Below, piece after piece: positions 1 through 33,764 of a stretch of DNA of 64,000 bases. A program made the translations under genes and the position numbers. Position 1 is the stretch's first letter. Every line of letters begins with the position of its first letter. Below the pieces are notes generated by a model, which was given only the letters and a program-made list of their open reading frames with translations, did no database searches and was not told where the DNA came from. This stretch comes from a virus, in the IMG/VR virus record IMGVR_UViG_3300023179_000021, positions 32,001 through 96,000 of that record; one strand, given 5' to 3'.

Positions 1-1260
1 CAGTCCAGATACCAGGTACCCAATGGAATGATATAGCAGGTGGTGATTATCATTCCTTAGCTCGTAAATCCGATGGTACCTTGTGGTCATGGGGTCTTAA
101 TCAATTTGGCCAACTAGGAGACAATACCAAAACTTATAGATCCTCTCCAGTCCAGGTACCAGGTACCCAATGGAATGATATAGCAGGTGGTTTTTATCAT
201 CCCTTAGCTCGTAAACCTGTGGCTCCTGTTTTTGGTGAAGGATGTACACTTTGGGCATGGGGTCGTAATGCTGAAGGCCAACTAGGAGACAATACCACAA
301 CTAATAGATCCTCTCCAGTCCAGGTACCAGGTACCCAATGGAGTGATATAGCAGGTGGTTGTAGTCATTCCTTAGCTCGTAAATCCGATGGTACCTTATG
401 GTCATGGGGTTATAATAATAATGGCCAATTAGGAGACAATACCACAACTTGTAGATCCTCTCCAGTCCAGATACCAGGTACCTCCTGGAATGATATTGTG
501 AGTGGTAGTATTCATTCCTTAGCTCGTAAATCCGATGGTACCTTATGGGTATGGGGTCGTAATCAATATGGCGAACTAGGAGACAATACCACAACTTGTA
601 GATCCTCTCCAGTTCAGGTACCAGGTACCCAATGGAATGATATAGCAGGTGGTAATTACCATTCCTTAGCTCGTAAATCCGATGGTACCTTATGGTCATG
701 GGGTTCTAATTTTTTTGGCCAACTAGGAGACAATACCAGAACTAATAGGTCCTCTCCAATCCAGGTACCAGGTACCCAATGGAATGATATAGCAAGTGGT
801 AGTCTTCATTCCTTAGCTCGTAAATCCGATGGTACCTTATGGGTATGGGGTCGTAATGATTCTGGCGAACTAGGAGACAATACCACAACTAATAGATCCT
901 CTCCAGTCCAGATACCAGGTACCCAATGGAATGATATAGAAGGTGGTTGTGTCCATTCCTTAGCTCGTAAATCCGATGGTACCTTATGGTCATGGGGTTA
1001 TAATTGTTTTGGCCGACTAGGAGACAATACCACAACTTGTAGATCTTCTCCAGTCCAGGTACCAGGTACCACATGGAATGATATAGAAAGTGGTGATCTC
1101 CATTCCTTAGCTCGTAAATCCGATGGTACCTTATGGATATGGGGTGTTAATGCTTCTGGCGAACTAGGAGACAATACCAGAACTACTAGATCCTCTCCAG
1201 TCCAGATACCAGGTACCCAATGGAATGATATAGCAGGTGGTAATAACCATTCTTTAGCCA
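1..1260 (+). repeat. 147-bp coding tandem repeats (RCC1 blades)
   Basis: Near-identical units, e.g. aaatccgatggtacc...ggagacaatacc...tcctctccagtccag, recurring every 147 nt. Confidence 0.95.
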
Positions 1261-1280
1261 TCAAATGTTTTCCGGTATAA
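1..1280 (+). CDS. RCC1/BLIP-II repeat beta-propeller protein, 5'-truncated by the window edge
   Basis: Frame is open from base 3. Contains 49-aa repeats (DGTLWxWGxNxxGQLGDNT..RSSPVQIPGTQW.DI.GG..HSLARK), with 7 repeats after the linker KPVAPVFGEGC. Confidence 0.9.
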   Translation, partial: VQIPGTQWNDIAGGDYHSLARKSDGTLWSWGLNQFGQLGDNTKTYRSSPVQVPGTQWNDIAGGFYHPLARKPVAPVFGEGCTLWAWGRNAEGQLGDNTTTNRSSPVQVPGTQWSDIAGGCSHSLARKSDGTLWSWGYNNNGQLGDNTTTCRSSPVQIPGTSWNDIVSGSIHSLARKSDGTLWVWGRNQYGELGDNTTTCRSSPVQVPGTQWNDIAGGNYHSLARKSDGTLWSWGSNFFGQLGDNTRTNRSSPIQVPGTQWNDIASGSLHSLARKSDGTLWVWGRNDSGELGDNTTTNRSSPVQIPGTQWNDIEGGCVHSLARKSDGTLWSWGYNCFGRLGDNTTTCRSSPVQVPGTTWNDIESGDLHSLARKSDGTLWIWGVNASGELGDNTRTTRSSPVQIPGTQWNDIAGGNNHSLAIKCFPV

Positions 1281-1300
1281 TTATTATTTTTTTATAAATT

Positions 1301-1882
1301 ATGCTTTTATTTGATTATGTTACGGTGATGCCAAACTGCTTAAATGATTCTTTACTTGATATGTATTTGTCATTAAAAGAACAAGAAGTTTCTCCGGCAC
1401 TTACCGGTTATTCCGATAACCAAAAAACAAACCTTGAGTATCGTAAAACAAATTGGATTCCTATACCTTATGACCTTTTACAACAAACTCAGGCCTCCAT
1501 TACTTCTTTTTATAATGGTATGCTTCTTGACAAATATAAACAACCAATTAAATTTATTGAACCTACACAATTACTCCATTACCCCGTTGGTGGTGAATAT
1601 AAAGAACATAATGATTCTGAAGATTTTGTCCACGGAAAACTGACAAGAGTTTGCGAAAGAGACTTGTCGATTTTAGCCTACCTAAATGATGACTATGAAG
1701 GTGGTGAACTCGAACTAAATAACTTTAATGTGACATTTAAACCAAAGGCCGGAACTGTGATTTGCTTTCCTTCCTACATTGAATTCACACACCGAGTTTA
1801 TCCGGTGACCAAAGGTAACAGATATACACTTGCAACATGGATATGCACCTATGAACGAATCTACTCCAGACCATACTTATGA
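1301..1882 (+). CDS. 2OG-Fe(II) oxygenase, prolyl 4-hydroxylase-like
   Basis: HxD (EHND), YLNDDYEGGEL, distal H (THRVYPV) and RY motif. Confidence 0.85.
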   Translation: MLLFDYVTVMPNCLNDSLLDMYLSLKEQEVSPALTGYSDNQKTNLEYRKTNWIPIPYDLLQQTQASITSFYNGMLLDKYKQPIKFIEPTQLLHYPVGGEYKEHNDSEDFVHGKLTRVCERDLSILAYLNDDYEGGELELNNFNVTFKPKAGTVICFPSYIEFTHRVYPVTKGNRYTLATWICTYERIYSRPYL

Positions 1883-2492
1883 CAAAGAAGGCTTTATCGT
1901 ACTTCGAAAATTTATACCACATTTTTTCGCTGACTACCTTAAAACCTATTTCGACACATTAAAAACAAACGATAAATTACAAAAAGGCGATGCACAAGTC
2001 GGTAATTCTTTGTGTACCTATGGTGACCCAGCCTTTGATACTTTTATGCTTATGTCGGCACCTTTGATTTCTGGTGCCGTAGGAAAGCAATTATTTCCAA
2101 CTTATACTTACGCACGAATTTATTACAAAGGCTCCGAATTACTTCCACATATTGATCGAGATGAGTGTGAACATTCGGTATCGGTATTTCTTGGTGGTGA
2201 ATATGATACGCTATGGCCAATTTGGATGCTAAATAAAGAAGTACACAAGCAACCTCAAATGTGTGCGCTTTATTCTGGTGATGCCGTAGTTTATCAGGGA
2301 AACAAAGTACATCATTGGCGTGATGGTTTCGAGGGCACCTCACACTATCAATTGTTTATGCACTTTGTTGAAGCCGATGGCAAACACAAGGATAAAATTT
2401 ACGACACTCGCCCCTTTATAGGATTACCAAGTGACACAAAAACAGATTATGGACTTTCAAGCGATCAACGACCAAGCGAAGAACCTGTTTGA
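1851..2492 (+). CDS. 2OG-Fe(II) oxygenase
   Basis: TYTYARIY, LLPHIDR..CEHS, GDAVVYQG, HWR. Start moved to ATG 1851. Confidence 0.8.
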   Translation: MNESTPDHTYDKEGFIVLRKFIPHFFADYLKTYFDTLKTNDKLQKGDAQVGNSLCTYGDPAFDTFMLMSAPLISGAVGKQLFPTYTYARIYYKGSELLPHIDRDECEHSVSVFLGGEYDTLWPIWMLNKEVHKQPQMCALYSGDAVVYQGNKVHHWRDGFEGTSHYQLFMHFVEADGKHKDKIYDTRPFIGLPSDTKTDYGLSSDQRPSEEPV

Positions 2493-3630
2493 CCAAAAAC
2501 AATTTTCTGAAGCTCTTCAATTACTTGATCGTCCTGACCTACCAAAAGAACTCATACCAAATTTAGCCAAGTGCTATTATTACACTTCAAGGGCTCCCGA
2601 GGCTCTTGAATTGTTATTGCCACTGAAGAAAGACGCAGACCTTTGGATTGATACGGCTCTTTATTACAATGCCATAGGAAACCATGATAAGGCTCTTGAA
2701 ATTTATGAGACATTAAATAAAGAAGATTCAAAAGTTGCTTTTAATATAGCCTGGCATTACCTAAGAAACAATGAATTTTCAAAAGGGTTTAAACTCATAC
2801 AAAAAGGGTCTGAAGTAAGATCCTGGGGTCACGAATACCTTCACCTTGAAAATGGCATCGTTCATCCCGAGAACCGATGGAGTGGTCAACAAACCAATCA
2901 TTTAGTTCTTTTACTTGAAGGTGGTCTGGGTGATGAATTTATTTTTTTACGATGGGCCAATTACCTTAAAACAAAATGTAATAAGTTAACCATTCTTTGT
3001 AATCCATCCCTTCTTCGTTTACTGACCAATGCTGGGTATGATGTAATGCCAAGTAGCGCACTGAAAGAATTAGACTACGATCATTATGCACCAAGTATGG
3101 CTTTACCCGATATTCTTGGTTTAAATTCACCACAAGAACATGTCGTTTTTCCTTATATAAAATCCTATGTTGAACCATTTATTACCAAGCAAATGAATAA
3201 AGTAGCGAATGGCCAAAAAAAGATTGGCATTAAATGGTTTGGAAATCCAGAGTTTGAACATGACCAATTTAGAACGGTACCCTCAGATGCACTGAAGGAT
3301 CTTGAAGAATTTGGTCAATTATTTTCTTTACAATTTGAAGATGGTGACCCAAGAATACCAAATTGCCGAGAAATCATTCGAGACTGGCAAGATACCTATT
3401 CGGTCTTTGGTAGTCTTGATTTAATGGTGACCAGTTGTACCAGTACCGCACATTTAGCTGGTGCCATGGGTATACCTGTCATTGTTTTGGTTCCATTAGT
3501 ACCGTATTTTGTATGGGCTTCTGATACAATGCCCTGGTATCCAAAAAATGTAAAGGTTCTCAGACAAACTAAATACAATGACTGGTCTGAAACCTTGAAA
3601 GAACTATACCATGAAATATCAAGAATTTAA
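2449..3630 (+). CDS. TPR-containing glycosyltransferase (GT9/heptosyltransferase-like)
   Basis: N-terminal TPR-like helices, EGGLGDEFIF, LDLMVTSCTSTAHLAGAMGIP. Confidence 0.8.
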   Translation: MDFQAINDQAKNLFDQKQFSEALQLLDRPDLPKELIPNLAKCYYYTSRAPEALELLLPLKKDADLWIDTALYYNAIGNHDKALEIYETLNKEDSKVAFNIAWHYLRNNEFSKGFKLIQKGSEVRSWGHEYLHLENGIVHPENRWSGQQTNHLVLLLEGGLGDEFIFLRWANYLKTKCNKLTILCNPSLLRLLTNAGYDVMPSSALKELDYDHYAPSMALPDILGLNSPQEHVVFPYIKSYVEPFITKQMNKVANGQKKIGIKWFGNPEFEHDQFRTVPSDALKDLEEFGQLFSLQFEDGDPRIPNCREIIRDWQDTYSVFGSLDLMVTSCTSTAHLAGAMGIPVIVLVPLVPYFVWASDTMPWYPKNVKVLRQTKYNDWSETLKELYHEISRI

Positions 3631-4219
3631 ATTATTTCCAACAACTGTCTTGCGTTTTGATTGCTCTGAGGTGATTACAAATGATGATGTAAACGCTATG
3701 ATTTTCGACATTGATAAAATTTGTGACAATGGTAAGTACATACAAGACGATGAAAAAACTCCCAAATATCAAAGTAAACCTATTTTGTTTTTAGATGAAG
3801 CACCAGAAATTTGGCAGAAACTTAAATATACTTTTTTAAATTCTTGCCAACAATATTTACAAACCGTGAATGATTTTGTCAACAATCAAAACTCAATGCA
3901 ATTCACTGGTGCTCGAGCCTGGTTCTACAAGGGCTGGAAATCCTTTAATGTTACACAAACCAACCCATGGCATAATCACAACCCTTCGTTTCTTTCGGGT
4001 GTATTTTATTTAAGTGTTCCTGGAAATGAAAATGAAGGTGGCACCGAATTTATGGACCCAAGACAAAATGAATCTCATGGTGTTCGTAATCAATTTATCG
4101 CACCAATTAATTTAACTTGGGTTATTTTTCCAGGGTGGCTCTATCATCGTTCGAGCTATTGTGATACTGAAACACCTAGGTATGTCATTGCTGCCGATTC
4201 TTATGTAAAAGTGCAATAA
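3611..4219 (+). CDS. putative 2OG-Fe(II) oxygenase (TIGR02466-like)
   Basis: LFPT, WHNH..SFLSGVFYL, IFPGWLYH, RYVIA. Confidence 0.75.
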   Translation: MKYQEFKLFPTTVLRFDCSEVITNDDVNAMIFDIDKICDNGKYIQDDEKTPKYQSKPILFLDEAPEIWQKLKYTFLNSCQQYLQTVNDFVNNQNSMQFTGARAWFYKGWKSFNVTQTNPWHNHNPSFLSGVFYLSVPGNENEGGTEFMDPRQNESHGVRNQFIAPINLTWVIFPGWLYHRSSYCDTETPRYVIAADSYVKVQ

Positions 4220-4806
4220 TGTACCAACAGTTTATTCACACAAAACCGGAAGTCAAAGAGGTGGCCACTGATATTTTGGCCGTTGAATTTTGGAAGCCAG
4301 AGTTTTGTGAGTATGTCATTGAGGCTGCCGAAAACATAGGTGGTTTTCAAAGTCATCCAAGTGACCCGGTACCTGGTTCGGAGCTTCGCATAAATAAAAT
4401 TTCCGAAGAGCTTTACACTTCTTATTGTAGACATTGGAAATATATTCTGCAACCCATTCTTGAAGATTATTATCAACTTCCATCGGAGCAATGGTTCTTT
4501 GGTTGGAAAGTTCCGTTCATTATTAAGTATACAATGAACGGTCAAAGAAATTTAAGAAAACATTTTGATGGCAGCTTAATTACGGGATCAGTGAAATTAA
4601 ATGATAAATACAGAGGTGCCGAGTTAGTATTTCCTAGGCAAAAGTTTTCAAATAAGAATGTTCCTATTGGTTGGATTTTACTTTGGCCAAGCAGTATACA
4701 ACATTTACATTTTTGTGATGATTTAATAGAGGGTACAAAATATTCTTTGACTTGTTGGACTAAACAGGATATAAAAGAGCAAGGAATCAATTACAAGGAT
4801 GTTTAA
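4219..4806 (+). CDS. 2OG-Fe(II) oxygenase resembling the procollagen lysyl-hydroxylase catalytic domain
   Basis: FIIKYTMNGQRNLRKHFDGS.IT..VKLN..Y.G.EL.FPRQ, HLH, GTKYSL. Confidence 0.75.
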   Translation: MYQQFIHTKPEVKEVATDILAVEFWKPEFCEYVIEAAENIGGFQSHPSDPVPGSELRINKISEELYTSYCRHWKYILQPILEDYYQLPSEQWFFGWKVPFIIKYTMNGQRNLRKHFDGSLITGSVKLNDKYRGAELVFPRQKFSNKNVPIGWILLWPSSIQHLHFCDDLIEGTKYSLTCWTKQDIKEQGINYKDV

Positions 4807-6989
4807 TGGTAACTAAAAATGTATTTCGTTTAAAGAAATATTATGAATTAGTTTTGGCTGGTTGTGTGGGTTATGATGCTACGTTTGATGGCGGTGAATT
4901 GTGGTCGTGGGGTTATAATGGTGATGGCCGACTAGGAGACAATACCAAAACTTGTAGATCCTCTCCAATCCAGATACCAGGTACCCAATGGAATGATATA
5001 GCAATCGGTAATTCTCATTCCTTAGCTCGTAAATCCGATGGTACCTTGTGGGCATGGGGTGATAATGGTAGTGGCTTTCTAGGAAACAATACCACAACTC
5101 CTAGATCCTCTCCAGTCCAGATACCAGGTACCCAATGGAGTGATATAGCAAGTGGTGGTAACCATTCTTTAGCCTGCAAATCTGATGGCACTTTATGGGT
5201 GTGGGGATCTGGTAATTGTGGCCGTTTAGGAATCAATTCTACATCTCAAAGATCCTCTCCGATCCAGGTACCAGGCACCACATGGAGTGATATATCGGGT
5301 GGTGAAAGTCATTCCTTAGCTCTTAAATCCGATGGTACCTTGTGGTCATGGGGTTATAATGTTTATGGCCAACTAGGAGACAATACCACAACTCAAAGAT
5401 CCTCTCCAGTCCAGGTACCAGGCACCCAATGGAATGTTATAGAGGGTGGTAGTTCCCATTCCTTAGCTCGTAAATCCGATGGTACCTTATGGGTATGGGG
5501 TAATAATAGTTCTGGCAACCTAGGAGACAACACCACAACTTGGAAATCCTCTCCAGTCCAGATACCAGGTACCCAATGGAATGATATAGTAGGTAGTGCT
5601 AGTTTTTCTTTAGCTCGTAAATCCGATGGTACCTTATGGTCATGGGGTTATAATGGTTCTGGCCGACTAGGAGACAATACCACAACTAATAGATCCTCTC
5701 CAGTCCAGATACCAGGTACCCAATGGAATGATGTAGGGAGTAGTGTTGCCCATTCCTTAGCTCGTAAATCCGATGGTACCTTATGGTCATGGGGTGTTAA
5801 TAATTGTGGCCAACTAGGAGACAATACCACAACTTATAGATCCTCTCCAGTCCAGATACCAGGTACCCAATGGAATGATATAGCAGGTGGTAGTTCCCAT
5901 TCCTTAGCTCGTAAATCTGTGGCTCCAGTTTTTGATGAGGGTGCTTGTACCTTATGGTCATGGGGTTATAATAATTGTGGCCAACTAGGAGACAATACCA
6001 CAACTAATAGATCCTCTCCAATCCAGATACCAGGTTTTCGGTGGAATGATATAACAGGTAGTGGTTGTCATTCCTTAGCTCGTAAATCCGATGGTACCTT
6101 ATGGGCATGGGGTAATAATGGTCAAGGCCAACTAGGAGACAATACCATAACTCCTAGATCCTCTCCAGTCCAGGTACCAGGTACCCAATGGAATGATATA
6201 GCAAATGGTAATAGGCATTCCTTAGCTCGTAAATCCGATGGTACCTTATGGGCATGGGGTGCTAATGGTAGTGGCGAACTAGGAGACAATACTGGAACTT
6301 ATAGATCCTCTCCAATCCAGATATCAGGTACCCAATGGAATGATATAGAAGGTGGTGGTAGCCATTCCTTAGCTCTTAAATCCGATGGTACCTTATGGGT
6401 ATGGGGTTATAATTATAATGGCCAACTAGGAGACAATACCAATACTAATAGATCCTCTCCAATCCAGGTACCAGGTACCCAATGGAATGATATAGCAGGT
6501 GGTGTTAGCTTTTCCTTAGCTCGTAAATCCGATGGTACCTTGTGGTCATGGGGTGCTAATGGTGTTGCCCAACTAGGAGACAATACCAGAACTTATAGAT
6601 CCTCTCCAGTCCAGGTACCAGGTACCCAATGGAATGATATAGCGGGTGGCGGTTTTCAATCCTTAGCTCGTAAAACCGATGGTACCTTATGGGCATGGGG
6701 TAATAATGGTCGAGGCAACCTAGGAGACAATACCAGAACTTATAGATCCTCTCCAGTCCAGATACCAGGTACCCAATGGAATGATATAGGAGGGGGATGT
6801 CTTTATTCCTTAGCTCGTAAAACCGATGGTACCTTATGGGTATGGGGCGATAATGATAAAGGTCAATTGGGACAAATAACTTATACTGATCGGAGGTCTT
6901 CTCCAGTCCAGGTACCAGGTACCCAATGGAGTGATATAGCAAAGGTTGATAACCATTCTTTAGCCATCAAATACAATAGTACCGCTTAA
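4806..6989 (+). CDS. RCC1-repeat protein with 14 repeats (two tandem 7-bladed propellers)
   Basis: 7 repeats, linker SVAPVFDEGAC, then 7 repeats; paralogue of 1..1280. Confidence 0.9.
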   Translation: MVTKNVFRLKKYYELVLAGCVGYDATFDGGELWSWGYNGDGRLGDNTKTCRSSPIQIPGTQWNDIAIGNSHSLARKSDGTLWAWGDNGSGFLGNNTTTPRSSPVQIPGTQWSDIASGGNHSLACKSDGTLWVWGSGNCGRLGINSTSQRSSPIQVPGTTWSDISGGESHSLALKSDGTLWSWGYNVYGQLGDNTTTQRSSPVQVPGTQWNVIEGGSSHSLARKSDGTLWVWGNNSSGNLGDNTTTWKSSPVQIPGTQWNDIVGSASFSLARKSDGTLWSWGYNGSGRLGDNTTTNRSSPVQIPGTQWNDVGSSVAHSLARKSDGTLWSWGVNNCGQLGDNTTTYRSSPVQIPGTQWNDIAGGSSHSLARKSVAPVFDEGACTLWSWGYNNCGQLGDNTTTNRSSPIQIPGFRWNDITGSGCHSLARKSDGTLWAWGNNGQGQLGDNTITPRSSPVQVPGTQWNDIANGNRHSLARKSDGTLWAWGANGSGELGDNTGTYRSSPIQISGTQWNDIEGGGSHSLALKSDGTLWVWGYNYNGQLGDNTNTNRSSPIQVPGTQWNDIAGGVSFSLARKSDGTLWSWGANGVAQLGDNTRTYRSSPVQVPGTQWNDIAGGGFQSLARKTDGTLWAWGNNGRGNLGDNTRTYRSSPVQIPGTQWNDIGGGCLYSLARKTDGTLWVWGDNDKGQLGQITYTDRRSSPVQVPGTQWSDIAKVDNHSLAIKYNSTA
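4895..6965 (+). repeat. 147-bp coding tandem repeats, same unit as 1..1260
   Basis: Scaffold nucleotide sequence is shared with the first RCC1 gene. Confidence 0.95.
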
Positions 6990-7007: not shown

Positions 7008-7865
7008 ATGAAAAATATGAATTTTTGTATAGGGTTGCCTCGTTCCGGTTCAACCCTTTTGATGAATATCCTTCAACAAAACCCTAGCATCTTTACATCA
7101 TCAACTTGTCCAACTCCATACCTAGTTGAAGGTTGTAAAATACAGGCCACATCTATATCCGAGTTTATTGCTATGGATCAGGATGTGCTTACTAAGTCTC
7201 TCCTTTCTTTTATGAAATATGGTATTGATGGTTGGTACAATGCCTTAACCAATAAACCAAATATCATTTCTAAGTCGAGGTGCTGGGACAGTAATTTAAA
7301 TATGATTTTTGCTCTTTATGAAAACCCCAAGATTATCATTTCGCTTCGTGATGTTCGAGATATAATTTGTTCTTTTGAAAAACTTCTTCAAAGACATCCA
7401 ATGTGGACAATAGGTTCCAAAGAAGACCCTGTACACCTAATGCCCTTTGAAAAACGAATGGAAATTTATTGTACCGATGTTGGTGCAAATTTAGGAAGGC
7501 CACTTTATTACCTTCCACATGTTTACGAATGGATGCAAAAGAGGCCAAATAATTTCTTTCTTTTTCGTTTTGAAGACTTTAATGAAAAACCAAAAGAATC
7601 GTTGAGATCACTGTATCAATGGCTCGACCTACCCTATTTCGACCATGACTTAAATAACATACCTCCGGCTGAACAGTATGAACATGACACTGTTTATCGA
7701 GCTCTAGTTTCACACAAGACCGAAACAAAACTAAGATATATGGAACCGAACTATATATCTATGATGACGCCAGAACAATCGGACCTTGTCATACGGCACA
7801 ATGAATTTTTTTACAAGACATTTTATCCTGAAATTTATTATGAAAAATCAAATAGAATTTCGTAA
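7008..7865 (+). CDS. sulfotransferase (PAPS-dependent)
   Basis: 5'-PSB motif GLPRSGSTLL, 3'-PB motif LRDVRDIICS, RFEDF. Confidence 0.85.
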   Translation: MKNMNFCIGLPRSGSTLLMNILQQNPSIFTSSTCPTPYLVEGCKIQATSISEFIAMDQDVLTKSLLSFMKYGIDGWYNALTNKPNIISKSRCWDSNLNMIFALYENPKIIISLRDVRDIICSFEKLLQRHPMWTIGSKEDPVHLMPFEKRMEIYCTDVGANLGRPLYYLPHVYEWMQKRPNNFFLFRFEDFNEKPKESLRSLYQWLDLPYFDHDLNNIPPAEQYEHDTVYRALVSHKTETKLRYMEPNYISMMTPEQSDLVIRHNEFFYKTFYPEIYYEKSNRIS

Positions 7866-27421: not shown

Positions 27422-29086
27422 ATGGCGTTTCAGCTTTCACCTGGCGTAAATGTATCAGAAATTGATCTGACTACAATTGTGCCCTCAGTCGCCACATCAG
27501 TTGGCGCCTTTGCCGGAATTTTTGCCTGGGGACCAGTTAATGAAGTCATTACAATTTCCGACGAAGTTCGTTTGGTTGACGTATTTGGTAAGCCAGACAA
27601 CAATAATTATGAATACTGGTTTTCAGCCGCTAACTTTTTAGCATATTCAAACAACCTTCGTGTCATTCGTGCAGCAAATTTAGCTACAACAAATACAGCT
27701 ACAAGTGCAAACTCGGGTCTTTTAATTGAAAATGAAGATGATTACTTAGATAATCACAGTTCTGGTGCAAACACTTATGGTCGTTTTGCAGCTAAATACC
27801 CCGGTGATTTGGGTAATTCAATTCGTGTAGAAGTTGCAGATTCAAACACATATTCTGGTTGGACATACGCAAATAATTTTACATCTACACCAAATACTTC
27901 TGTATCTGTTTCAAATCGTGGTGGTGCAAATGATGAATTGCATATCATTGTTCTTGATGTTAATGGTAAATTTACTGGAACAAATAATACAATTCTTGAA
28001 AAATTTCCTTTTGTTTCTAAAGCCAGTGATGCTAAAAGTTTTGATGGTTCTAGTAACTTCTATAAAGATGTTCTTAATCAAAGGTCTAAATACATTTATT
28101 GGATGTCACACCCAGACAGTACAAATTGGGGCACCGTAAACTCTAGCTATACATTACTTGCAACAAGAATCACCTCGACCCTCGCAAATGGCGCCAACGG
28201 TTCAGTAACAGCTGGTGATATTCAAACAGCATTTAATAAAGTAGCCAACCCCGATTCAGAAGACGTTTCATTAATTATTACAGGCCCAGCAACTGCAGCT
28301 ACAATTACAAATGCTATCTCAATTGCTGAAACTCGTAAAGATTGTGTTGTGTTTTGCTCACCAGAGAAAGCTGATGTTGTTGATAATTCTGGTTCTCAAG
28401 AGAATGATGTAACAGCATTCCGTGATACAATTACATCTTCTTCATATGCTGTTATGGATTCTGGTTGGAAATATCAATACGACAAATACAATGACGTTTA
28501 TCGTTGGATACCACTAAATGCTGATACTGCCGGACTCTGTGCTCGAACAGATCAAGAACGTGATCCATGGTTTTCACCAGCAGGTACAAATCGCGGCGTA
28601 ATTAAGAACGTTATTAAATTGGCTTGGAATCCCACTAAAGCTAATCGTGATGTTCTTTACAATCGTGGTATTAATCCAGTTGTTACATTTCAAGGCGAGG
28701 GCACAGTTCTTTTTGGCGACAAAACACTTTTAAGCCGCCCATCAGCATTTGATCGCATTAATGTTCGACGCTTATTCATTTCACTTGAAAAATCAATAGC
28801 ACGTGCAGCTCGCACTTCACTGTTTGAATTTAATGATACATTTACGAGATCACAATTTGTAAATCTGGTTGAGCCTTATCTTCGTGATGTACAAGGTCGC
28901 CGCGGTATTACTGACTTCCGTGTTGTGTGTGATGAAACAAATAACACTGCTGAAGTTATTGATCGCAACGAATTTGTTGGCGATATTTTTATCAAACCAG
29001 CTCGTTCAATTAACTTTATTCAATTGAATTTTGTTGCTGTAAGAAGTGGTGTAGCTTTTGAAGAAATTGTTGGTCGTGCAGTCTAA
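27422..29086 (+). CDS. gp18: tail sheath protein gp18
   Basis: LSPGVNVSEIDLT, PWFSPAG, FDRINVRRLF. Confidence 0.95.
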   Translation: MAFQLSPGVNVSEIDLTTIVPSVATSVGAFAGIFAWGPVNEVITISDEVRLVDVFGKPDNNNYEYWFSAANFLAYSNNLRVIRAANLATTNTATSANSGLLIENEDDYLDNHSSGANTYGRFAAKYPGDLGNSIRVEVADSNTYSGWTYANNFTSTPNTSVSVSNRGGANDELHIIVLDVNGKFTGTNNTILEKFPFVSKASDAKSFDGSSNFYKDVLNQRSKYIYWMSHPDSTNWGTVNSSYTLLATRITSTLANGANGSVTAGDIQTAFNKVANPDSEDVSLIITGPATAATITNAISIAETRKDCVVFCSPEKADVVDNSGSQENDVTAFRDTITSSSYAVMDSGWKYQYDKYNDVYRWIPLNADTAGLCARTDQERDPWFSPAGTNRGVIKNVIKLAWNPTKANRDVLYNRGINPVVTFQGEGTVLFGDKTLLSRPSAFDRINVRRLFISLEKSIARAARTSLFEFNDTFTRSQFVNLVEPYLRDVQGRRGITDFRVVCDETNNTAEVIDRNEFVGDIFIKPARSINFIQLNFVAVRSGVAFEEIVGRAV

Positions 29087-29111
29087 ATAGGGAAAAATAG
29101 GAGAAAATAAC

Positions 29112-29657
29112 ATGGCATTTTCAGTAGCTCAATTTAGATCCCAAATGACTGGTGACGGTGCTCGTCCCAATTTATTTGAGGTTTCTATGCCGTTTCCTAC
29201 CTTTTCTGCACCGGGAAACGCACAAACAAAATTAACATTTATGTGTAAAACTGCACAACTTCCCGGTTCAACCGTTGGAGTTGTGCCTGTTCAATATTTT
29301 GGCCGCGAATTGAAATTTGCTGGTAACAGAACTTTTGCAGATTGGACAATTACAGTCATTAATGATGAAGACTTTATTGTAAGAAATGCGTTTGAACGTT
29401 GGATGAATGGCCTTAACACACATCGTACCAATCTTCGTAATGCTACAGCCTTAGCTCCCTCTAGTTACACTCAAGATGCAGAAGTTTATCAATATGGCAA
29501 AATTGGCAATCGGATTAAAACTTATAGATTTATTGGCATGTTTCCAAATGATATTACGCCAATTGATGTTGATTGGGGTTCGAATGATACTATTGAAGAG
29601 TTTTCGGTAACTCTTGCTTATCAATGGTGGGAAGCGGTACCTACTGGCGTATTTTAA
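29112..29657 (+). CDS. gp19: tail tube protein gp19
   Basis: GARPNLFEV, GRELKFAGNRTFADWTITVINDEDF. Confidence 0.95.
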   Translation: MAFSVAQFRSQMTGDGARPNLFEVSMPFPTFSAPGNAQTKLTFMCKTAQLPGSTVGVVPVQYFGRELKFAGNRTFADWTITVINDEDFIVRNAFERWMNGLNTHRTNLRNATALAPSSYTQDAEVYQYGKIGNRIKTYRFIGMFPNDITPIDVDWGSNDTIEEFSVTLAYQWWEAVPTGVF

Positions 29658-29660
29658 AGT

Positions 29661-29686
29661 GGTGGGCTTTGGCCCATTTACTTCTT
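29661..29686 (+). terminator. hairpin after gp19 (possible terminator)
   Basis: GTGGGC-TTTG-GCCCAT followed by a T-rich tract. Confidence 0.5.
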
Positions 29687-29701
29687 TAGAATGAGAAACC
29701 G

Positions 29702-31342
29702 ATGGCAATAAACCTTTTTGGGTTTACTATAGGTAGAAAAGACGTTGCTCAGGAAGAGAAACCAGAGCAACGTTCTTTTGCACTTCCTATGCCGGCACTT
29801 GACGATGGTGCCATTACAATTACACAAAATGCTTATTACGGCACATATGTTGACCTAGAAGGTTCTGTTCGAAATGAGCTAGAACTGATTACACGCTATC
29901 GTGAAATGGCAAATCACCCTGAACTTGAAGCCGCTATTGATGATATTGTCAATGAAGCTATTACACATGATGAAACTGGTGATGTTGTCACTATTAATTT
30001 GGATAAACTTAAACAACCAGAAACAATTAAGAAAAAAATTATTGAAGAATTTAATAATGTTCAACGTCTTCTTAATTTTGAAAATTTAGCTGATGATTTA
30101 TTTAAACGTTGGTATATTGATGGAAGAATTTATTTTCATATTGTAGTTAACGAAAAAAATCCCAAAGAAGGTATACAAGAACTTCGTTATATTGATCCAA
30201 GAAAAATAAGAAAAGTTCGTGAAGTTGTAAAAGAAAAAGATGCCAAATCTGGTGCTATGGTTATTAAATCTTTAGCGGAATATTATGTTTACAGTGATCG
30301 TGGCAGTACAACACAAACTTACACCGCGGGTATAAATGCCGGTGTTCGTATTGCTGCTGATTCTGTTATTAATGTAAATTCTGGTCTTATGGATGCTAAA
30401 AATACTTTTGTGATTTCATATATTCATAAGGCCATTAAGCCACTTAATCAATTACGAATGATTGAAGATGCAGTAGTGATTTATCGTTTATCTAGAGCAC
30501 CAGAACGTCGTGTTTTTTATATTGATGTTGGTAATTTGCCAAAAGGTAAAGCTGAACAATACCTTCGTGACATCATGATTAAATATCGTAATAAAATGGT
30601 TTATGATGCAAACACTGGTGAACTTCGTGATGATCGTAAACACATGTCAATGCTTGAAGATTTTTGGCTTCCTCGCCGTGAAGGTGGTAAAGGTACAGAA
30701 ATTACTACACTGCCTGCTGGTCAAAACTTAGGTCAAATTGAAGATGTAGATTATTTTCGCAAAAAACTTTTACAATCTTTAAATGTTCCATATTCCCGAA
30801 TGGATCAACAAGGTGGTGGTGGTCTTGCATCTCTTGGACGATCAGCTGAAATCACCCGTGATGAATTGAAGTTTGCTAAATTTGTTAATCGCCTTCGAAA
30901 TAAATTTTCACAAATATTTGATAATGCTTTAAAAATACAACTTTCACTTAAAGGTATTTGTAGTTTAGAAGAGTGGGATGAATTTAAAGAAAGTATCTAT
31001 TACGATTATAAAAAAGATAATAATTTTACTGAACTTCGTGAAGCAGAATTAATGCGTGAAAGAGTTTCAACACTTCAACTTTTAGATCCTTATATTGGTA
31101 AATATTTTTCTCAAACATGGGTTAAAAAAAATGTTCTTCGCATGTCTGATGAAGAAATTGAAGAGATGGCTAAAGAAATGGAAGAAGACGGTTCAACTGA
31201 TATGTTAGCACAGGCTCAACAACCCGAAGGTGGCGATCAAGTTGAACCAGTAGATAACACTGTTGATCGCACGGCTACTGAATCGCCAACACCACAACTT
31301 GATGCTGAAGTTGAGAAATATTCAATAGGTATAAATAGATAA
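29702..31342 (+). CDS. gp20: portal protein gp20
   Basis: WYIDGR, RAPERRVFYIDVGNLPK.KAEQY, EDFWLPRREGGKGTEI. Confidence 0.97.
   Translation: MAINLFGFTIGRKDVAQEEKPEQRSFALPMPALDDGAITITQNAYYGTYVDLEGSVRNELELITRYREMANHPELEAAIDDIVNEAITHDETGDVVTINLDKLKQPETIKKKIIEEFNNVQRLLNFENLADDLFKRWYIDGRIYFHIVVNEKNPKEGIQELRYIDPRKIRKVREVVKEKDAKSGAMVIKSLAEYYVYSDRGSTTQTYTAGINAGVRIAADSVINVNSGLMDAKNTFVISYIHKAIKPLNQLRMIEDAVVIYRLSRAPERRVFYIDVGNLPKGKAEQYLRDIMIKYRNKMVYDANTGELRDDRKHMSMLEDFWLPRREGGKGTEITTLPAGQNLGQIEDVDYFRKKLLQSLNVPYSRMDQQGGGGLASLGRSAEITRDELKFAKFVNRLRNKFSQIFDNALKIQLSLKGICSLEEWDEFKESIYYDYKKDNNFTELREAELMRERVSTLQLLDPYIGKYFSQTWVKKNVLRMSDEEIEEMAKEMEEDGSTDMLAQAQQPEGGDQVEPVDNTVDRTATESPTPQLDAEVEKYSIGINR
31330..31337 (+). 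promoter_or_regulatory. T4 late promoter TATAAATA
   Basis: Exact T4 consensus upstream of the prohead core genes. Confidence 0.7.
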
Positions 31343-31550: not shown

Positions 31551-32314
31551 AAAGTTTAACTGAATTTAGGCAAGAACCTCTAACGGAAGAAAAATCAAAT
31601 TATTTAAAGTTTGATATTTTAATTCGTGCTGGTTTAGCTAATAAAGCACAGTTACAAAGAATACATAACATTCTTGATAAAATGCAAGAGGAAAAACCAT
31701 CTTTTAATAACGCCGATAAAATGATTATACAAAATCTTTTTAATAAAATGGCGGATTTGCTTACTTCAAATAAGCAAATTTTTTCACAAGCACGCCGTTC
31801 GGTTAATGAGGGTGTAATTGATACCTCCGATTATAAAGTTTCACCAACAACTGGTAAAAAATATAAAGCTCATCGAATTAATATTTCAAAAACTGGTGAA
31901 GAAGAAAATCTCAAAGAAGAATTAACTAAGTTTGACCCACCTTTTGTTCTTGTATTGAAGCGAAAAGCCATTCGTCTTTATCCTGGCTCTACAAGAATTG
32001 CATTATATTACAGTGATAAATTAAATAAGTATTTTTCTGTACCTTATTCTACCGAAGAAAATCAAAGAGGTGTTGTACAAGCTGAAGATACAATTATGTC
32101 GGTATTAGAATTTGTCAGAGAAAATAAACAACCTCAGACAATTTCATATGGTGAAAATCAAGACATTATAATTGAATATCGAGTAGCTAATGCAATATTA
32201 AAAATTTATGCTTCTTTAAATGACGAAAATAAATTAAAAATTTCTGAGATGATTGAAAAAGGACCTGAGCAATTTAATAAAGTTGCTAGTTTTGCTTTAT
32301 CAAAAATCATATGA
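31547..32314 (+). CDS. hypothetical head-module protein
   Basis: 255-aa ORF between portal and protease. Confidence 0.6.
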   Translation: MKSLTEFRQEPLTEEKSNYLKFDILIRAGLANKAQLQRIHNILDKMQEEKPSFNNADKMIIQNLFNKMADLLTSNKQIFSQARRSVNEGVIDTSDYKVSPTTGKKYKAHRINISKTGEEENLKEELTKFDPPFVLVLKRKAIRLYPGSTRIALYYSDKLNKYFSVPYSTEENQRGVVQAEDTIMSVLEFVRENKQPQTISYGENQDIIIEYRVANAILKIYASLNDENKLKISEMIEKGPEQFNKVASFALSKII

Positions 32315-33756: not shown

Positions 33757-33764
33757 TATAAATA
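33757..33764 (+). promoter_or_regulatory. T4 late promoter TATAAATA
   Basis: Exact consensus upstream of gp22. Confidence 0.75.

Follow-up and report, generated by a model that had tools for sequence, protein, structure and literature searches.

Known sources of variation in the receptor-binding proteins of phages are diversity-generating retroelements (DGRs), invertible segments and the mosaic exchange of fibre modules. The hallmarks of a DGR are a reverse transcriptase (RT), an extra, usually non-coding template repeat, and variation confined to the adenines of that template, none of which stays invariant in the variable region. A different mode of diversification has been described for the WD40 repeats of 'high internal conservation' in the fungal NLR proteins HET-D, HET-E and NWD of Podospora anserina (PMC1805685, PMC2873952). 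These propeller repeats are near-identical in their DNA, show concerted evolution both inside single loci and among paralogous ones, and differ in number between strains, and a few codons per repeat, located on the interaction face, are under positive diversifying selection. Finally, a survey of highly repetitive RCC1/BLIP-II propellers, with a few viral members among them (Pereira & Lupas 2022, PMC9218822), describes near-identical blades with few synonymous changes and reads them as fresh amplification from a single blade.

The phage genes presented here resemble the fungal repeats in all the respects just listed. They differ in that the propellers belong to the RCC1 and not the WD40 type, that the genes seem to lie in a phage structural module instead of encoding a STAND/NLR protein, that about 6–11 codons per repeat vary, not 4, that RIP cannot contribute, and that the role is probably host recognition, not allorecognition. 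The STAND/NLR architecture (NTPase plus repeats) is absent, as just a segment of about 30–40 aa stands ahead of the repeats and no further Pfam domains are found; what the genes share with HET-E/NWD is therefore the mode of evolution and not the protein family. With the surveyed RCC1/BLIP-II propellers our genes share the fold family and the blade uniformity, whereas saturated face codons, turnover between strains and homogenisation across three syntenic loci are absent from that description. Our literature search, on RCC1 in the tail fibres of phages and on hypervariable RCC1 repeats in phage genes, yielded nothing relevant.

Three RCC1 genes next to baseplate and fibre genes

The window analysed is a stretch of 64,000 nt from a 145.6-kb virus record (IMGVR_UViG_3300023179_000021, positions 32,001 to 96,000) that is 83% complete. 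We assign the source phage to the freshwater (lake) T4-like cyanomyoviruses, Kyanoviridae-like. The relevant features of the window are:

1..1280, plus strand: RCC1 gene A, 3' part, 425 aa, of a 14-blade double propeller (ORF and Pfam)
1301..4806, plus strand: five genes listed between gene A and gene B (Pfam, PHROG phrog_61, S-SRM01 annotation), as follows
1301-1882, plus strand: 2OG-Fe(II) oxygenase
1830-2492, plus strand: gene without known function
2431-3630, plus strand: TPR protein
3611-4219, plus strand: 2OG-Fe(II)-oxygenase-like gene
4219-4806, plus strand: 2OG-Fe(II)-oxygenase-like gene
4806..6989, plus strand: RCC1 gene B, 727 aa (ORF, Pfam, AF2 model)
7008..7865, plus strand: sulfotransferase, directly 3' of gene B (Pfam Sulfotransfer_3, 2.2e-14)

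The whole record carries three paralogous RCC1 genes (g0, gene A or gA, and gene B) with 14 blades each, that is, 42 units of 147 bp. Gene A begins at genome position 31091, so that roughly the first 910 nt, its 5' end, are cut off by the window edge. Its part inside the window begins with the last portion of blade 6, followed by blade 7, the linker between the two propellers (~216-248) and blades 8–14, with units at 81, 249, 396 and so on to 1131. Gene B is made up of an N-terminal segment of about 30 aa, seven blades, a linker (VAPVF..., ~5919-5951) and seven further blades. The 22 complete units counted in the preliminary description are thus present, 8 in the 3' part of gene A and 14 in gene B. 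The third paralogue, g0 (genome positions 28013-30202), lies upstream of the window and was outside the view of that description.

Gene B matches the Pfam profiles WD40_RLD (PF25390; 6.3e-157, 523 bits against a cut-off of 150) and RCC1 (PF00415; 391 bits in 14 stretches); the values for gene A are 3.3e-115 and 1.9e-84. The AF2 model of gene B has four strands in every 49-aa unit and 2 x 7 units, with a mean pLDDT of 75.6. With profile scores above the curated cut-off and seven four-strand blades, the genes are RCC1/BLIP-II beta-propellers. Among solved structures, UVR8 is the best relative (4.5e-55; PDB 4D9S), followed by HERC1/2 and RCC1. The N-terminal ~35 aa have no family match in Pfam or PHROG, and no known anchor or trimerisation domain was found there. 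This segment appears as a low-confidence helix in the AF2 model and keeps a G-W-L...W..Y motif among homologues of about 740 aa.

Directly upstream of the RCC1 genes we found genes of the baseplate wedge, together with a phrog_358 protein of 1982 aa and a fibre of 259 aa that carries a Peptidase_S74 chaperone domain. The motif TATAAATA is located 72 nt 5' of the gene preceding g0, and also precedes baseplate and head-scaffold genes; it resembles a late promoter and predicts late expression of the RCC1 operon. Such a position suggests, as circumstantial evidence, that the RCC1 genes belong to the baseplate/tail-fibre module. The region also encodes oxygenase, sulfotransferase and glycosyltransferase enzymes. 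No annotation was found for the 301-aa gene before g0 and the 291-aa gene before gA, and no solved relative of the sulfotransferase was found by sequence.

A comparable arrangement exists in the cultured Synechococcus phage S-SRM01 (NC_070963), whose RCC1 genes gp335, gp337 and gp344 occupy syntenic positions and vary at identical positions of the unit. The first RCC1 gene of that phage comes after one annotated 'long tail fiber protein distal subunit'. As in our record, the second and third RCC1 genes have genes for a TPR protein and a 2OG-Fe(II) oxygenase between them, and a sulfotransferase (gp345) directly follows gp344. In contrast to our genes, those of S-SRM01 encode single propellers of 344–405 aa with a 51-aa unit and a scaffold of their own, and their blades are less uniform (63–77% nucleotide identity). 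They are annotated merely as 'regulator of chromosome condensation', and the text of the genome paper on S-SRM01 contains neither this term nor RCC1.

A uniform scaffold and saturated codons on one face

We numbered the codons of the unit from the L of LWxWG. A per-site alignment places the variable codons where they had first been noticed, namely at 6, 8, 9 and 11 (WG-x-N-x-x-G-x), 17 and 19 (T-x-T-x-R), and 35, 36, 38 and 39 (DI-x-x-G-x-x-H); codon 3 also varies, moderately. Of the ~6–11 variable codons per blade, about six are strongly and about five moderately variable. In the six core codons (6, 8, 9, 19, 38 and 39) positions 1 and 2 are near saturation, with a mean diversity (pi) of 0.59–0.74 compared with 0.08–0.10 at four-fold sites of the scaffold, which bears out the earlier observation that the scaffold is almost invariant even at synonymous sites. 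Even where two units have 0–2 differences over the 114 nt of scaffold, about 12.7 of the 33 hypervariable nucleotides are different. The dN/dS comparison that had been proposed as a check gave a dS of 0.133 for the scaffold and a dN of 1.17 for the core codons (NG86), so that omega at the core codons is at least ~9 by Nei-Gojobori counting, an estimate limited by saturation.

The codon after WG (codon 6) had been reported to end in T in all 22 units. This is correct, with exactly the eight codons listed at the time (ctt, cgt, tat, tct, gtt, gat, aat, gct), and it extends to 42 of 42 units in the genome and 94 of 94 when five strain-level contigs are included. Under the genome's own codon usage such an outcome has P ~10^-23.6 if the units are independent, and codon usage can be rejected as the source of the NNT pattern. 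Moreover, Arg and Leu at codon 6 are encoded by CGT and CTT only, though AGA and TTA are equally common or commoner genome-wide. The third-position T is frozen to the same degree as other synonymous sites, and thus no special template is needed to account for it. Synonymous sites enclosed by variable codons (0.086) match free ones (0.082) in their uniformity. The variable alleles are therefore not old linked haplotypes, and old balanced alleles with linked variation are unsupported, although site-by-site conversion could mimic this uniformity.

Tyr, Asn, Ser, Phe and Cys are abundant among the variable residues, as they are in binding sites. According to DSSP of the AF2 model, the variable positions fall into the D-to-A and B-to-C loops and the end of strand B. 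In the alignment with UVR8, codon 6 corresponds to W94/W302, codon 8 to D96, codon 19 to D107, and codons 38/39 to W285/R286, all of which are dimer-interface residues of that protein (PMC7455749, PMC8748919). UVR8 is likewise a seven-bladed RCC1 propeller, and its dimer-interface positions are those that vary in the phage genes; however, it is a plant photoreceptor with non-homogeneous blades and no functional relation to them. Loop topology and the UVR8 alignment together place the variable positions on one propeller face, as the preliminary description had expected of a structure model.

Turnover between strains and concerted evolution

Five metagenome contigs from closely related strains raised the sample to 94 units, including the 42 of this genome. 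Flank genes are 96–99% identical and the scaffold is the same, while the hypervariable sets are unrelated; despite the near-identical flanks, amino-acid identity of the RCC1 proteins is just 0.73–0.81. Four-fold differences amount to 0.02–0.11 in conserved flank genes and 0.03–0.13 in the RCC1 scaffold. Blades at the same position in two strains are no closer in their variable codons than other blades, and when a strain blade is matched against all blades of this genome, the best match is at the level of the shuffled null. Each orthologue has 7, 14 or 21 blades in these short-read assemblies, in which blade order and number may be partly chimeric. For the first loop, 87 of 94 haplotypes are distinct and sharing between genomes again equals the shuffled null, so that shuffling of a small pool of whole blades or cassettes is rejected.

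Within the genome, g0 and gA differ at 0.050 of four-fold sites, compared with 0.478 (gA) and 0.313 (g0) against the orthologues of a more distant relative (L047). Paralogues within a genome are thus closer than orthologues, and the S-SRM01 scaffold is lineage-specific as well, which shows that the three RCC1 loci evolve in concert. Constraint on the scaffold at the nucleotide level is unsupported, since the L047 scaffold has diverged at 0.31–0.48 of four-fold sites and close strains show an equal clock in scaffold and flanks. Megablast against phage records and an IMG/VR search with scaffold patterns returned no match, and a search of 5.8 billion proteins gave nothing above 52% identity among the 120 best matches listed.

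Origin of the face diversity and role of the proteins

The explanation that we favour, and hold to be rather probable, is that the RCC1 proteins are modular binders for host recognition, with a scaffold homogenised by recombination and a face under diversifying selection. Each gene, a short N-terminal segment plus two seven-bladed propellers, would encode a modular binding protein in which the variable residues of all blades together pave one face. Homologous exchange among near-identical 147-bp units, within and between the three loci, keeps the scaffold uniform or made it so recently, by concerted evolution or the spread of one founder blade, and also alters propeller number between strains. 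Amino-acid replacement at face codons outpaces the synonymous clock by a factor of at least ~9, and strains with 96–99% identical flanks therefore carry unrelated face residues. This pattern is observed; its cause is most likely diversifying selection acting on ordinary point mutations, while recombination on a fine scale, or heteroduplex repair between blades, may bring about a nearly independent reassortment of the variable codons. The antibody- or VLR-like repertoire proposed at the outset holds as far as the pattern goes, in that the variable residues appear one-faced in the model and near-identical strains carry unrelated sets. Of the routes suggested for it, gene conversion or repeat exchange under diversifying selection agrees with the concerted evolution, the high omega and the changes in blade number, whereas whole-blade shuffling does not agree with the almost entirely distinct haplotypes.

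As to function, the proteins probably serve host recognition; they may be recognition or adhesion proteins that are expressed late, form part of the baseplate/tail-fibre complex and are engaged in an arms race with host surface structures that vary. BLIP-II, a tight-binding propeller inhibitor, is the model for another role with the same evolution, in which the proteins would be intracellular binders or inhibitors of variable host proteins (e.g. defence or takeover targets) and not virion adhesins. We regard this as unlikely but as the strongest competitor. It is in line with the general protein binding of RCC1/BLIP-II propellers (PMC9218822), with the lack of a fibre-like anchor or trimerisation domain in Pfam and PHROG searches and with the enzymes encoded by adjoining genes. 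However, the place right after baseplate/tail-fibre genes is kept in two distant phages, the late-promoter-like motif precedes the operon, and other phages have RCC1 domains joined to the N-terminal domains of tail fibres. PollyC and Littlefix, two Pseudomonas phages, have RCC1-like propellers in proteins that carry a tail-fibre annotation.

For selection alone, such an omega at about 250–460 codons simultaneously is extreme, and the seven blades of the relative L045, without a single four-fold scaffold difference while their face codons all differ, leave room for a mutational bias. It is conceivable, though in our estimation doubtful, that a repertoire generator without RT is at work, either codon-wise heteroduplex repair among the 42 blades or a process that mutates only positions 1 and 2 of about six codons per blade. 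In the former version, mismatch-level repair would reassort single codons independently while erasing neutral differences. If true, the phage would possess six antibody-like faces with full turnover between strains at ~5% synonymous divergence, and a second, mechanistically distinct route to hypervariation in phage receptor binding would exist beside DGRs.

Targeted hypermutation, by a DGR whose RT and template lie in the unsequenced ~17% or by another process limited to positions 1 and 2, appears less probable still. The locus does resemble DGRs of the Bordetella BPP-1 Mtd type in having a tail-fibre-linked protein, an invariant scaffold, variation at positions 1 and 2 and an NNT-like output. 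The saturated NNT codons look like AAY-templated ones, the amino-acid set (Y, N, S, C, F and others) resembles DGR output, and replacement exceeds the synonymous clock to an extreme degree. A DGR is nevertheless rejected on three independent tests. The absence of an RT from the window, noted before, holds for the whole 145.6-kb record (83% complete), in which an RVT_1 profile search gave no match at E<=0.01. No spare template copy is present in the record either, all 42 unit matches falling inside the three coding genes, so that the non-coding copy for which a search had been proposed was not found in the record. Lastly, 22 adenine sites per 147-bp unit are at least 95% conserved across 94 units, and codons 17 and 35 vary just at the middle base between fixed bases, which for codon 17 are adenines. 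The proposed derivation from AAT by DGR-type mutagenesis consequently fails. In addition, the third-base T is no more frozen than the remaining synonymous sites, and the targets would be 42 variable RCC1-fold units instead of one C-terminal C-type-lectin or Ig variable region.

Recent amplification of one blade followed by neutral drift at unconstrained loops, without selection for diversity, fits the origin proposed for highly repetitive RCC1 propellers (PMC9218822) and the scaffold codons rare in this genome (TCC, ACC, GTC, GGC, GAC), which a frozen founder unit would be expected to keep, but is refuted by a face-codon dN far above scaffold dS: drift cannot exceed the synonymous rate, and neutral sites (pi ~0.08) stand against saturated loop codons, which makes it highly improbable. 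An assembly artefact, with collapsed or chimeric repeats feigning a uniform scaffold, is just as hard to credit: the 147-bp repeats do come from short-read metagenome assembly and blade numbers differ between contigs, but reading frames of 1.1–3.3 kb are intact in the record and in six independent contigs, which stem from at least three datasets, the scaffold retains many singleton variants, most of them non-synonymous, which no assembler could arrange, no more than 48 nt separate the variable codons, so that each blade is phased inside single reads, and cultured S-SRM01 has the same family and layout.

Under the explanation favoured above, of modular binders homogenised by recombination and diversified by selection, a T4-like cyanophage lineage appears to share the strategy of the WD40 repeats of fungal NLRs, and the RCC1 data provide a clean natural case of concerted evolution in a virus. 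If the proteins bind the host surface, their compact 49-residue unit with defined variable positions would be of use for binder engineering. They would, in that case, also serve as a natural and tractable scaffold in studies of arms races between phages and cyanobacteria in lakes, with S-SRM01 as a cultured phage that has the same three loci.

Three RCC1 genes in a T4-like myovirus

The virus record IMGVR_UViG_3300023179_000021 is linear, 145,640 bp long and estimated to be 83% complete, i.e. the genome is incomplete; the window spans its positions 32001-96000. It is that of a T4-like myovirus and encodes a terminase, tail sheath, portal, head scaffold, major head protein, DNA polymerase and baseplate wedge proteins, and almost all of its listed long ORFs lie on the + strand. 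In the RCC1 region its closest cultured relative is a Synechococcus phage from fresh water, S-SRM01 (family Kyanoviridae). Three paralogous RCC1 genes are present:

RCC1 genes and the adjacent sulfotransferase gene
Genome 28013-30202: third paralogue, g0, just upstream of the window
Window 1-1280: gene A, truncated by the window edge; start about 910 nt upstream
Window 4806-6989: gene B, complete
Window 7008-7865: sulfotransferase gene directly after gene B (Pfam Sulfotransfer_3, 2.2e-14; same position in S-SRM01)

Each RCC1 gene encodes an N-terminal segment of 30-40 aa, seven blades, a short linker (VAPVF...) and seven further blades. This amounts to 42 units in the genome, each 147 bp (49 codons) long; the window contains 22 complete ones. 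Because all sequences are short-read metagenome assemblies, the order and number of blades may be partly chimeric. In two units the B-to-C loop is one codon longer or shorter. The RCC1 regions (window 1-6989) have a G+C content of ~0.40, compared with ~0.35 in the neighbouring 8-14 kb, and the scaffold, the non-variable part of the unit, contains codons with a low frequency in this genome (TCC 6%, GTC 9%, CTA 10%, ACC 15%; also GGC and GAC). These codons fit a spread from one founder blade; together with the higher G+C, they look as if a single atypical founder had been amplified.

Variable codons and their place on the propeller

Comparison of the units bore out every element of the preliminary description of the repeats and their variable codons. 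Counting from the L of LWxWG, the codon after WG is codon 6; it had been said to end in T in all 22 units, and it is indeed NNT in 22/22, in 42/42 genome units and in 94/94 when relatives are added, counts that are not independent since the units share descent. Codon usage can be ruled out as the cause, with a probability of about 10^-23.6 under independence; Arg and Leu at this codon are always CGT and CTT, while AGA and TTA are equally common or commoner genome-wide.

Six core codons (6, 8, 9, 19, 38 and 39) are strongly variable, each with 9-13 amino acids among the 42 units, and codons 3, 11, 17, 35 and 36 are moderately so. At positions 1-2 of the core codons diversity reaches 0.59-0.74 (0.49 at position 1 of codon 9), where the ceiling is 0.75, as against a mean of 0.08-0.10 at the 16-20 four-fold-degenerate sites of the scaffold. 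Third positions of the core codons resemble other synonymous sites (0-0.26), except for codon 39. Unit pairs with nearly the same scaffold (n=43; 0-2 differences in 114 scaffold nt) differ on average at 12.7 of 33 variable nt, just as distant pairs do. Scaffold and variable codons are decoupled. The variable residues are often Tyr (21%), Asn (13%), Ser (13%), Phe (8%) or Cys (7%), with few charged ones, a composition typical of binding sites.

An AlphaFold2 model of gene B (mean pLDDT 75.6; pTM 0.47, low because the placement of the propellers relative to each other is uncertain) shows each unit as four strands:

Segments of one unit in the AlphaFold2 model
W2-x6: strand D
N7-R20: D-to-A loop
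S21-P27: strand A
32-37: strand B
38-40: B-to-C loop
41-46: strand C

The variable codons lie at the ends of strands D and B and in the D-to-A and B-to-C loops, apart from codon 3 in the middle of strand D. The up-down topology of the blade places these strand ends and loops on the same side, so that all variable positions except codon 3 are predicted to share one propeller face. Conservation is highest on the opposite face, in the short turns A-to-B (PGTQW) and C-to-D (KSDGT). Among solved structures UVR8 (4D9S, E 4.5e-55) is the closest, and the units align to it as follows, with chain numbering one ahead of that of UVR8:

Positions of the unit aligned to UVR8
Codon 6: W94/W302
Codon 8: D96
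Codon 19: D107
Codons 38-39: W285-R286
Invariant W4: W92/W300

In UVR8, residues W94, W233, W285, W337, W198, W250 and W302 form the dimer interface, with W92 and W300 in a buried ring (PMC7455749), and R286 makes cross-dimer salt bridges with D96 and D107 (PMC8748919). On this alignment, five of the six core variable positions thus correspond to residues that experiments assign to one and the same interaction face.

Strain variation and concerted evolution

A scan of metagenome contigs with one 25-mer of the scaffold recovered six contigs (L045-L050, from Ga0214917, Ga0214923 and OGWL01), all syntenic with this genome. In five of them, conserved flanking genes have 96-99.5% DNA identity and a four-fold difference of 0.02-0.11, whereas some fibre-like neighbours are far more diverged (0.3-0.6), indicating a mosaic region. 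The RCC1 scaffold differs from ours at 0.03-0.13 of four-fold sites without any fixed difference, and is therefore on the same clock as the flanks. Orthologous RCC1 proteins, paired via their near-identical N-termini, are only 73-81% identical.

At the variable codons, blades in the same position in different strains share no more than other blades, and the best match of a foreign blade to any blade of this genome follows the distribution obtained when variable columns are shuffled independently. The 94 canonical units contain 87 distinct loop-1 and 83 distinct loop-3 haplotypes, and a clear association exists only between adjacent variable codons (8-9 and 38-39). The seven blades of L045 have no differences at 16 four-fold sites, and 22 of 33 variable-codon nt differ. 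Over pooled positional orthologues (NG86), the scaffold has a dS of 0.133 and a dN of 0.061; dN rises to 0.48 at moderately variable codons and to a saturated 1.17 at core codons, giving a crude, saturation-limited omega of at least ~9 for the latter.

The scaffold dN/dS is itself high (0.061/0.133; all RCC1 units, window 81-1277 and 4899-6980), and the majority of scaffold singleton variants are non-synonymous. Codons 24 and 26, only 6 nt apart, toggle between V and I, and all four combinations are found. Blade number in the orthologues is 7, 14 or 21: one strain has 21, i.e. three propellers, where others have 7 (L050, Ga0214923_10033828, 55-3318, reversed strand; L049; L045). Single-propeller forms terminate in ...SLARKA, just where double forms continue into the linker.

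L047, the sixth contig, is less closely related, and its N-terminal segments identify clear orthologues of g0 and gene A:

Four-fold scaffold differences within and between genomes
g0 vs gene A of this genome (paralogues): 0.050
g0 of this genome vs g0 of L047 (orthologues): 0.313
Gene A of this genome vs gene A of L047 (orthologues): 0.478
g0 vs gene A of L047: 0.34

In S-SRM01 (NC_070963, 4671-13098), three RCC1 genes with one propeller each occupy the same syntenic positions. The first comes after the gene annotated as 'long tail fiber protein distal subunit'; the second is followed by a TPR gene and a 2OG-oxygenase gene, and the third by a sulfotransferase gene. These three genes share one scaffold, built on a 51-aa unit (...TPVTTFAGGTNWKQV...) and different from the one found here. 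Together with the L047 distances, this indicates that the loci are old and that their blades were homogenised separately in distinct lineages. Because close strains have no genome-specific fixed differences, homogenisation may either be still running or reflect a single recent sweep before the strains split. In IMG/VR relatives further away, the unit is 50 aa long and blades are 47-76% identical. On the 50-kb viral contig L035 (IMGVR_UViG_3300043410_000467), positions 1-21526 hold two giant open frames of 4982 aa (5' end open) and 2203 aa with many RCC1-type motifs.

Origin of the diversity and putative function

Two readings of the age of the variable alleles can be proposed, and both need selection for diversity at the face codons. 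The alleles might have arisen once the scaffold was uniform, which would imply a rate far above the synonymous rate. Alternatively, conversion could act at single-mismatch resolution, so that each site would be its own locus; neutral sites would drift to uniformity and selected ones stay diverse. The phenomenon is real and striking, and an ordinary explanation is available. The chance of a novel mechanism, mutational or based on repair, is small; a mutational process of a new kind, not confined to adenines and acting at face codons, has a low probability.

A diversity-generating retroelement (DGR) was tested and rejected. The window had been described as free of reverse transcriptases, and none was found in the whole 145.6-kb record (83% complete). 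A genome search for a spare template copy found none, all 42 unit copies being coding. Across 94 units, 22 adenines per unit are at least 95% conserved, among them the AAT of codon 7, flanked by the variable codons 6 and 8, and the AAA of codon 45; in codons 17 (A-N-A) and 35 (G-N-A) the middle base alone varies. A DGR copies the entire variable region anew from an adenine-mutagenised copy, which is incompatible with such fixed adenines. The suggestion that codon 6 derives from AAT did not hold up either: the fixed T of NNT is as frozen as other synonymous sites, so a template is not needed. Old balanced alleles would drag linked variation with them, and none is seen at the synonymous sites enclosed by variable codons (codons 5, 7, 10, 18 and 37; 0.086 vs 0.082 at free scaffold sites). 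Relaxed constraint can be ruled out, since neutral substitutions cannot accumulate faster than synonymous ones.

The genes upstream of g0 encode baseplate wedge proteins, a 1982-aa phrog_358/DUF4815 protein, a 259-aa fibre protein and a 301-aa product. The fibre protein (genome 26262-27041; 14262-15041 of L043, a piece of the record upstream of the window) has a Peptidase_S74 chaperone domain and tail-fibre-tip similarity. About 0.4 of the four-fold sites in its gene differ between strains whose other genes differ by ~0.05, and it looks like a swapped allele. g0 starts 3 nt past the 301-aa gene, and genes A and B overlap the 3' ends of the genes before them. The motif TATAAATA, known from T4-type late promoters, is rare here, rarer than in shuffled sequence, and all four + strand copies are close to structural genes:

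Copies of TATAAATA, + strand
Window 31330-31337
Window 33757-33764
L043 1437-1444
L043 15026-15033

One copy is found shortly before a baseplate wedge gene and another shortly before the head-scaffold gene; a third is located at the 3' end of the portal gene, ~210 nt ahead of the following ORF, and the fourth lies 72 nt upstream of the gene for the 301-aa product that precedes g0. From this placement, TATAAATA looks like the T4-type late promoter of the phage. Pseudomonas phages PollyC and Littlefix have proteins with a tail-fibre annotation in which a Foldseek search against viral models detected RCC1-like propellers. Gene order and packing, TATAAATA, this tail-fibre precedent and the residue composition favour late-made host-recognition or adhesion proteins. 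A real alternative is that they are intracellular binders of variable host proteins, in line with the finding that no anchor domain was recognised in the RCC1 proteins. One idea, suggested by synteny, is that neighbouring enzymes sulfate or hydroxylate the propellers, whose variable face is 21% tyrosine.

Highly repetitive RCC1/BLIP-II propellers, among them a few from viruses, were catalogued by Pereira & Lupas and interpreted as recent amplifications (PMC9218822). The fungal het-d/het-e/NWD WD40 repeats studied by Paoletti et al. display concerted evolution across paralogues, a few positively selected face codons and variable repeat number (PMC1805685). The likeness lies in the evolutionary mode, not in the protein family: here a phage carries the repeats, which have an RCC1 fold and come without an NTPase domain. 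The literature that could be searched contained no paper on such concerted, face-variable evolution of phage RCC1 proteins. S-SRM01, being cultured and having three syntenic RCC1 loci, is a ready experimental system.
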